DNA of 64,000 nt from Schmidtea polychroa (lineage: Eukaryota), in assembly GCA_044892525.1 (NCBI GenBank), contig CM097885.1, forward strand, positions 35,590,001-35,654,000, in the 5' to 3' direction. This document shows positions 23,118 to 24,125 of this stretch, one piece after another. The translations under genes were made by a program, and so were the position numbers. Under the pieces are notes generated by a model, which was not told the DNA's origin, ran no database searches, and saw nothing but the letters and a program-made list of their open reading frames with translations. Within the stretch, counting starts at the first letter, position 1. The number at the start of each line of letters is the position of its first letter.

Positions 23118-24125
23118 AGTAGTGAGAAGTGAGGAGTATAAACCAAGCCAAATATACAGTATTACGTAATATTTGTATGGGTGCCTTAGGGGGGTGGTAT
23201 GGTGTTACATAACTTTGTTAAGTTACGTAATCCCATATTAAATGACGTAACTATATTTTTGATTGCGTAATAATTGGTTTTTAAATTTATGTCACAATTG
23301 ACCCCCTTATGTAATAATTGACCTTTGACCTCTTACATAATATTTGACCTTTGACCTCTTATGTAATAATTATACTTCATTAGAGTAGTGAGGAGTATAA
23401 ACCAAGCCAAATATCCCTGGAAAAAATTCAATACATTTTGATAGAGTAGTGAGAAGTGAGGAGTATAAACCAAGCCAAATATACAGTATTACGTAATAGT
23501 TGTATGGGTACACTAGGGGGTGGAATGGTGTTACATAATTTTGTAAAGTTACGTAATAATATATCAAATGACGTAAGTATATTTTTTGATTGCATAATAA
23601 TTGGTTTTTTTAATTTACGTCATAATTGACCCCCCTTATATAATAATTGACCTTTGACCTATTACATCACATTTAACCTTTGACCCCTTACATAATTGAC
23701 CTTTGACCTCTTATGTAATAATTATACTTCATTAGAGTAGTGAGGAGTATAAACCAAGCCAAATATCCCTGGAAAAAATTCAATACATTTTGATAGAGTA
23801 GTGAGAAGTGAGGAGTATAAACCAAGCCAAATATACAGTATTACGTAATATTTGTATGGGTACCCTAGGGGGTGGTATGGTGTTACATAATTCTGTATAA
23901 TTTTATTATAGATATATATTTATTGAATTATAAACATATATAAGAAAAAGTCATACATACATTTTTGAACCCGAGTACTATAATGATGACAATGAATGTG
24001 ATAAACACTCAGTTATAATTCACACACAGATAATAATAATAATAATAATAATAAAACCTTTTAATAACTAAATTGTTCACAACAATAAAAACTTTGACTA
24101 TTTCACAATAACAACGTAAAAGGCA
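23118..24125. repeat. Left TIR of element C (terminal unit reiterated at 23118, 23445, 23797)
   Basis: Reverse complement of ~33065-33876. Confidence 0.93.

Follow-up and report, generated by a model that had tools for sequence, protein, structure and literature searches.

The 64,000-nucleotide stretch of Schmidtea polychroa DNA analysed here (the window) has a high A/T content and numerous (AAT)n tracts, and it contains a Polinton/Maverick-type element, element C, whose features are collected in Table 1 together with a second block that serves for comparison. Among the 41 × 37 candidate AGTAG/CTACT end pairs in the whole window, 23118/33876 is the only one with a perfect 6-bp duplication, and the repeat on the 23118 side of element C is therefore a true TIR. 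The element shows the combination of features described for Polintons/Mavericks in PMC8097293 (available to us in part; sources so available are marked 'in part' throughout), namely the (AGT)2 end motif, the 6-bp target duplication, and genes for a B polymerase, a capsid protein and a protease, and its TIRs lie within the Maverick range of 46–1,447 bp reported there. It differs from the Mavericks of that account in its length (10.8 kb), in having no detected integrase or ATPase, in its broken polymerase and its TBP-like gene, and further in the unequal numbers of its terminal units, the internal copies of its terminus and the array of transcription factor motifs within its TIRs.

Table 1. Features of element C and of the comparison block, with positions counted within the window
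Feature	Position	Strand	Remarks
Element C, Polinton/Maverick-type	23118..33876		10,759 bp; ends AGTAGT...ACTACT
6-bp target-site duplication, left copy	23112..23117	+	
6-bp target-site duplication, right copy	33877..33882	+	
Outer TIR unit L1	23118..23444	+	327 bp; holds 9 bZIP-type octamers and 2 DR1 between a terminus copy and a second, shorter one
Terminus sequence	23118..23155	+	TATAAAC box at +20; further copies from 23384, 23445, 23736, 23797
Six distal bZIP-type sites of L1	23162..23294	+	18–43 bp apart; spacers unrelated
Composite repeat	23299..23366	+	receptor half-site or DR1, then, 1–3 bp on, a bZIP octamer; 26-bp tandem
TIR unit L2	23445..23796	+	352 bp; layout as L1; 10 relaxed octamers, 3 DR1-type repeats
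Left TIR inner arm	23797..24111	+	third full terminus copy, first two bZIP sites, unique sequence, (AAT)n tract
Frame with cysteine cluster	24169..24510	-	directed towards left TIR; no family match
TBP-like gene	24596..25036	-	Pfam TBP E=3.1e-14; directed towards left TIR
Two small frames	25119..25851	+	conserved in element D; no Pfam name
Major capsid protein-like gene	25848..27074	+	double jelly roll; Pfam DJR-like E=0.003, below cut-off
Adenovirus-type protease	27169..27522	+	Pfam Peptidase_C5 E=1.2e-4, above cut-off
Protein-primed B polymerase gene	29131..33000	+	in-frame stop 30499–30501; directed towards right TIR
Right TIR inner arm	33103..33516	-	
Outer TIR unit R1	33517..33876	-	360 bp; 10 relaxed octamers, 3 DR1-type repeats
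Comparison block	8008..8274		10 AP-1-type and 9 TGACCTTG sites; 120–390 bp inside the plausible right end of element A at 8394

The capsid-like gene had 140 homologues in a sequence search, and no match to a solved structure was found by sequence for either the capsid-like or the protease gene of element C. The two small frames ahead of it may, from their position, be minor-capsid-like and PZ-like. The polymerase is 57–71% identical to that of element D, a piece of which matches DNA_pol_B_2, and homologues of the element C polymerase carry PF03175. Between possible splice sites at 27787–27960 lies a short glutamine-rich, coiled-coil-like stretch that contains stops and has no Pfam match. Queries by tblastn with the element A integrase and with the ATPases from elements A and D gave no match with E ≤ 1 within 23118–33876. 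With its broken polymerase and with integrase and ATPase undetected, this copy is evidently a deleted, non-autonomous derivative, and it probably moved in trans.

Several observations concern the surroundings of element C. Its insertion point coincides with the last bases of a high-copy repeat (22500–23118; right side 33877–33883), which also occurs in a second organism and which, in public contigs, ends there with many different flanks; on the right side, element C is followed by the end of a D-type element. The TBP-like genes of element A (4268–4705, plus strand) and element C are 62% identical. Three or four Polinton-type elements contain or adjoin Bcl-2-like frames, at 51490–51897 (minus), 34602–35009 (plus), 6688–7008 (minus) and 36938–37250 (minus), with Pfam matches below the cut-off (E=2.2e-5 and 0.002), and an intronless rhodopsin-type GPCR frame with a weak Srw match and one close homologue lies at 39570–40622 (minus).

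The TIRs of element C are built from a repeating unit of 327–360 bp, present twice on the left and once on the right, which begins with the element's own terminus and carries 9–10 bZIP-type octamers and 2–3 DR1-type repeats. Five copies of the terminus lie in the left TIR and three in the right (mirrored, 33496–33857), each with an inward-facing TATAAAC box. The same box also precedes three internal genes (25349, 25806 and 27103), and it is not enriched across the window (41 occurrences compared with 33 expected; reached in 10 of 100 shuffles). The inner arms of the two TIRs are identical at 227 of 228 aligned bases as far as the AAT tract. Among the three units L1, L2 and R1, identity is complete over the first 44 bases, and 0–2 positions vary in the last 110; the distal section shows 12–16 differences in about 135 bases, and all six distal sites are retained in each unit. 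In the 26-bp tandem, every nuclear-receptor half-site has a bZIP octamer 1–3 bp after it, an arrangement that speaks for an array read by host factors.

The earlier note had placed five perfect DR1 13-mers in these TIRs, interleaved with bZIP-type sites. All five are located where it put them (23319, 23345, 23648 and 23697 on the plus strand and 33609 on the minus strand), with none elsewhere in the window, and the bZIP-type sites, including those at 23162 and 23223, are present as well. Two more DR1 elements have 1–2 mismatches and one further copy is more degenerate; the seven found at up to two mismatches all lie in the TIRs, compared with a chance mean of 0.77, and none of 100 shuffles reached seven. 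Even one relaxed DR1 seldom arises by chance (0, 2 and 0 of 5,000 shuffles). With one mismatch to TTACGTAA allowed, the 1,260 bp of TIR contain 27 octamers and the remaining 62,740 bp contain 33, and TTACGTAA-type octamers occur 8, 7 and 8 times per unit, where the shuffle mean is 0.34–0.37 and the maximum in 5,000 shuffles is 3–4.

Because the seven-member bZIP class had been picked after the sequence was viewed, the test was repeated with the published E4BP4/PAR consensus RT(G/T)AYGTAAY, fixed beforehand from PMC3197565. This consensus has 25 matches in the window, of which 23 lie in the TIRs at 16 distinct sites; the chance mean is 5.51 and 0 of 100 shuffles reached 25, which again counts in favour of a host-factor array. 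The enrichment over background on which the earlier note had let its proposal hinge was thus borne out by the shuffle tests for bZIP-type and DR1-type sites alike. At the 18 distal sites, the 10-bp R..Y flank rule holds in most cases, with a purine before in 15 of 18 and a pyrimidine after in 17 of 18, and in this the distal sites follow the rules for bZIP sites. Since the relaxed pattern admits an all-A/T octamer, its counts at the ends of elements D and E were not accepted as bZIP sites. Two other candidate readings were rejected: a hairpin or RNA gene as the cause of the palindromes (folding z=0.02 relative to shuffles; no Rfam family), and a TCF/LEF reading of the CCTTTG core, in which the next bases are AC or CC in 8 of 8 repeats, judged against the TCF consensus.

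We propose that the TIR array of element C would bind host PAR/C-EBP/ATF factors together with HNF4/RXR/COUP-class factors and act as a distal enhancer for internal early promoters, a reading to which we give about an even chance. Host bZIP dimers and a DR1-binding receptor would occupy the putative sites at both ends and open them; the bound arrays would act on two promoters 1–5 kb inside, those of the TBP-like gene and of the polymerase gene (near 25,070 and about 29,000), and the element's own TBP-like protein would then serve the capsid genes. Such an enhancer would be active in cells expressing the matching bZIP and receptor factors, and the array may also aid the start of replication at the ends, as in baculovirus hrs. 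The genes adjoining both TIRs face outward, whereas adenovirus early genes begin beside the ITRs and face inward; given this orientation, the array is not a proximal promoter for any frame of the element C copy and would have to act at a distance.

The motif counts themselves are not independent, the TIRs being three copies of one unit and the DR1 elements within a unit being multiplied through the 26-bp tandem. The spacers of this tandem are 72–94% alike, which points to one DR1 origin followed by copying, and the 26-bp tandem and the 327–360 bp unit together explain most of the raw motif count. These duplications, and the fact that sites recur every 18–26 bp, often with a common A/T-rich word after them, fit a neutral account, in which slippage and reiteration of the terminus multiplied a single chance motif and left an array without a role. 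The six distal octamers argue against it: their cores are 0.76–0.80 alike and every one persists, whereas their spacers are 0.35–0.40 alike, at the level of permuted spacers (0.36–0.38). With a uniform decay of 30% per base, seven of seven sites would survive with a probability of about 6e-6, a value that comes from a rough model and is overstated through the motif-picked cores. Also difficult to accommodate is the second end in the window, which is built from a different bZIP-plus-receptor pair, and we regard the neutral account as most improbable. The six outer bZIP sites are evidently not a recent tandem; if they did arise as one, the motif alone would have outlasted its context.

Variation among copies bears on both readings. 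The variant tallies for L1 cover 40 of the 67 variants recorded in public contigs, 34 of them inside L1; among these 34 listed variants, the octamers (72 bp) account for 13, the spacers (124 bp) for 20 and the DR1 (26 bp) for 1. Per base, then, the octamers are as variable as the spacers among the listed variants, which counts against the host-factor array and is what the neutral account would lead one to see. Eleven of the 13 listed octamer variants lie at positions 3–6 (one-sided P=0.011) and none at positions 1, 2 or 8, with P=0.10 for this positional bias when the C/G positions are left out. By hand reading, 12 of the 13 fit the relaxed pattern, two of these only as the all-A/T word, and one breaks it. 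Within the window, all 6 variable octamer columns of the three units, which are not independent of the contigs, are likewise at positions 3–6. A constraint on octamer positions across copies is suggested by this distribution, not proven.

The unit repeat itself is seen beyond the window. In public contigs, loose ends at 23118 occur in 15, 36 and 3 contigs of three runs, with an agreement of 0.42–0.63, and the 327-bp tandem joint is present in two runs from two studies, one of which may be the source sample. The presence of this joint indicates that the unit repeat is not peculiar to the present assembly, and element C evidently belongs to a multi-copy family carrying the tandem unit. In one further run, from the second organism, the match covers the flank of element C and not the TIR. 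No RNA run was listed as containing the element, and a run that may be RNA was not counted as evidence of expression.

More distant relatives were sought by polymerase-alignment searches, which yielded for analysis the best 80 of at least 463 metagenome loci (from 22/64 of the collection) and 13 viral loci, most of them ending near the gene. The motif array was found in none of 95 related loci, with at most two strict octamers per 350 bp in any of them. The inverted-repeat test covered the 21 of these 95 loci that reach at least 8 kb and gave one recognisable TIR pair, in L086 (30% identity); one end there is AGTAGT, and an array of bZIP or DR1 sites is lacking. The L086 pair is 143 bp long and G/C-rich (227–371 and 11151–11286) and surrounds a distant polymerase in a viral contig. 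In another locus (L037, 1691–2020), a unit of roughly 310 bp that contains TGACCTTGAA in doubled form occurs twice, about 3 kb upstream of a distant polymerase. In viral contigs, a capsid (MCP) search gave no relative and the DR1-plus-bZIP pattern had 0 matches; the two matches to the terminus pattern were both dismissed as chance occurrences in coding DNA. Atlas searches with two small frames gave nothing usable.

If the array is read by proteins, these need not belong to the host: the motifs might be recognized by a protein of the element family (origin-binding, packaging or regulator), their likeness to host motifs being incidental. The family does encode its own TBP-like protein as well as frames without a family match, one of them with a cysteine cluster, and a regulator could be among the genes that the element C copy has lost. 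No bZIP or nuclear-receptor-type domain was found, however, in the 26 + 34 element frames scanned (34 of 58 listed), a result that favours host factors; an accidental likeness to host consensus would be needed for each of two unrelated motif classes, and the motifs of element A are different, although its small frames are homologous to those of element C. Reading by an element-borne protein therefore seems to us very unlikely.

Host factors could also act in the opposite sense. Whether the array activates or represses is not readable from its sequence: DR1 is common to NR2-type receptors and not specific to HNF4 (PMC4014424), and the E4BP4/PAR consensus is common to activators and to the repressor E4BP4 (PMC3197565). 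The array might thus keep the element quiet, as a latency switch operated by E4BP4/Vrille-type bZIP repressors with COUP-TF or TR2/TR4-type receptors. E4BP4 represses via the very consensus that PAR activators use (PMC3197565), and silencing by TR2/TR4 is mediated by DR1 (PMC4014424). Planarian Polintons, on the other hand, are targeted by piRNAs and lose their silencing during differentiation (PMC8532177, in part), and with piRNAs already silencing them, the gain from a repressor array of their own is less obvious; we consider a latency switch distinctly unlikely.

An explanation that deserves more weight, though still unlikely in our view, is that the host factors mainly help excision or protein-primed replication at the ends, any effect on transcription being secondary. 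The first bZIP site is 45 bp from the terminus, the repeating unit always includes the terminus itself, and no listed variant falls in the 105 bp of terminus copies of L1; the outward orientation of the terminal genes is in keeping with such a role. Adenovirus ITRs offer a precedent: on a linear, protein-primed DNA, they carry sites for NF I and NF III, which enhance replication, and further sites for Sp1 and ATF, the latter of bZIP type; these host sites lie just inside the terminus, as do the putative ones of element C (PMC5717082, in part). The ends of the P-element, a cut-and-paste element, are bound by the host bZIP dimer IRBP18/Xrp1, which acts in break repair (PMC7776569, in part), and resemble the predicted state of element C in having a host bZIP dimer on transposon DNA; they differ from it in this repair role and in that no array is described in the available part of that source. 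In contrast to element C, the adenovirus ITR is about 137 bp long and has few sites, with no DR1 described in the part of PMC5717082 available. Few sites in about 100–140 bp are thus enough for adenovirus, whereas 9–10 bZIP and 2–3 DR1 sites over 230 bp per unit look more enhancer-like, and two further end types in the window do without one.

With a planarian as host, the DR1 elements would, under the enhancer reading, suggest activity in the gut and the parenchyma, the cells of Schmidtea where the HNF4 motif lies in accessible chromatin (PMC10558129, PMC12660999 and bioRxiv 2024.09.03.611027, all in part). Two reports count against this reading: in planarian promoters, the mere presence of a motif was a poor guide to tissue (PMC10558129, in part), and tissue-specific transposon activity was tied to genomic location (PMC8532177, in part), in a study where the words 'motif' and 'enhancer' are absent from the main text.

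The earlier note had further proposed that two families with unrelated TIR sequences converge on bZIP-plus-receptor ends of different specificity. The comparison block 8008–8274 does contain a second dense pair of this kind, the sites of which we take to be AP-1 sites and NR5A-type half-sites; by chance, AP-1-type sites have a mean of 0.11 and TGACCTTG a mean of 0.06, with maxima of 2 and 3 in 3,000 shuffles. The block and the element C unit have no 10-mer in common, and neither contains the sites of the other. The block resembles the array of element C in its place downstream of the last gene and beyond an (AAT)n tract, and it is a degenerate tandem in its own right. So much of the convergence proposal stands; yet neither an inverted partner nor a target duplication was found for the block within the window, and no array is present at the B ends (1806, 13388) or the D ends (41520–41947, 52257–52651), which leaves two of four end types. 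Convergence of two Polinton families on such ends is thus weakly indicated, and the lack of common words would also be compatible with an old common origin.

Other features of the ends in the window are recorded here. A G-run near the element A end at 8394 resembles B-type ends. The D-type TIRs (41800–41950 and 52180–52360) have repeated 31–42 bp units containing TTGGGA/TTCCCAA and 1–2 AGGTCA half-sites. Two copies of a long, repeat-rich and apparently gene-less sequence with a Polinton-like end occupy 1–1806 and 9300–13388, one of them adjoining the element A integrase.

A bolder proposition, which we hold to be doubtful, is that the Polinton families of one animal split host cell types among themselves via different bZIP-plus-receptor end codes, with the dose set by terminus repeats. 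The codes would be PAR/C-EBP plus DR1 (gut-type) for element C and AP-1 plus NR5A-type half-sites for element A. If this were true, a gut code on a capsid-bearing element would suggest that it is built for somatic switch-on and for travel as a particle; Polinton particles have not been observed, according to PMC8097293 (in part).

Host-factor arrays at viral ends are already known, so the principle is not new. Work by Ishida in 2000 is said to have placed HLF, FTF and E4BP4 at the HBV core promoter/enhancer II. That region resembles the classes predicted for element C in combining HNF4, RXR/PPAR and COUP-TF with C/EBP, and HNF4, C/EBP and COUP-TF act on the core promoter (PMC6265984, in part); it differs in having single sites within coding sequence, and in HBV both binding and tissue specificity are demonstrated, whereas for element C both are predicted. 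Baculovirus hrs share with element C tandem units rich in bZIP sites and act as enhancer and origin, their strength tracking the CRE/TRE count; they are, by contrast, dispersed in a circular genome and use a 30-bp palindrome read with viral IE1, with no DR1 described in the available part of the source (PMC13513840). Repeats derived from a Polinton TIR in C. elegans likewise contain predicted transcription factor sites, but these are putative sites affecting a host locus, and neither a dense two-class array nor a comparison of families is described in the part available (bioRxiv 10.1101/2024.01.15.575659). Our search of mostly open-access literature, by title and abstract opening, found no published account of a motif array in Polinton TIRs. 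What appears new is the form, in which a composite of two motif classes is copied along with the terminus and varies from one co-resident family to another.

The question that a TIR motif code addresses is how and in which cells animal Polintons switch on. A readable, family-specific code would yield direct predictions for planarian single-cell ATAC, RNA and hnf4 knockdown data, and it would decide between two accounts of tissue-specific transposon activity, one resting on genomic location (PMC8532177, in part) and the other on a code carried by the element itself.
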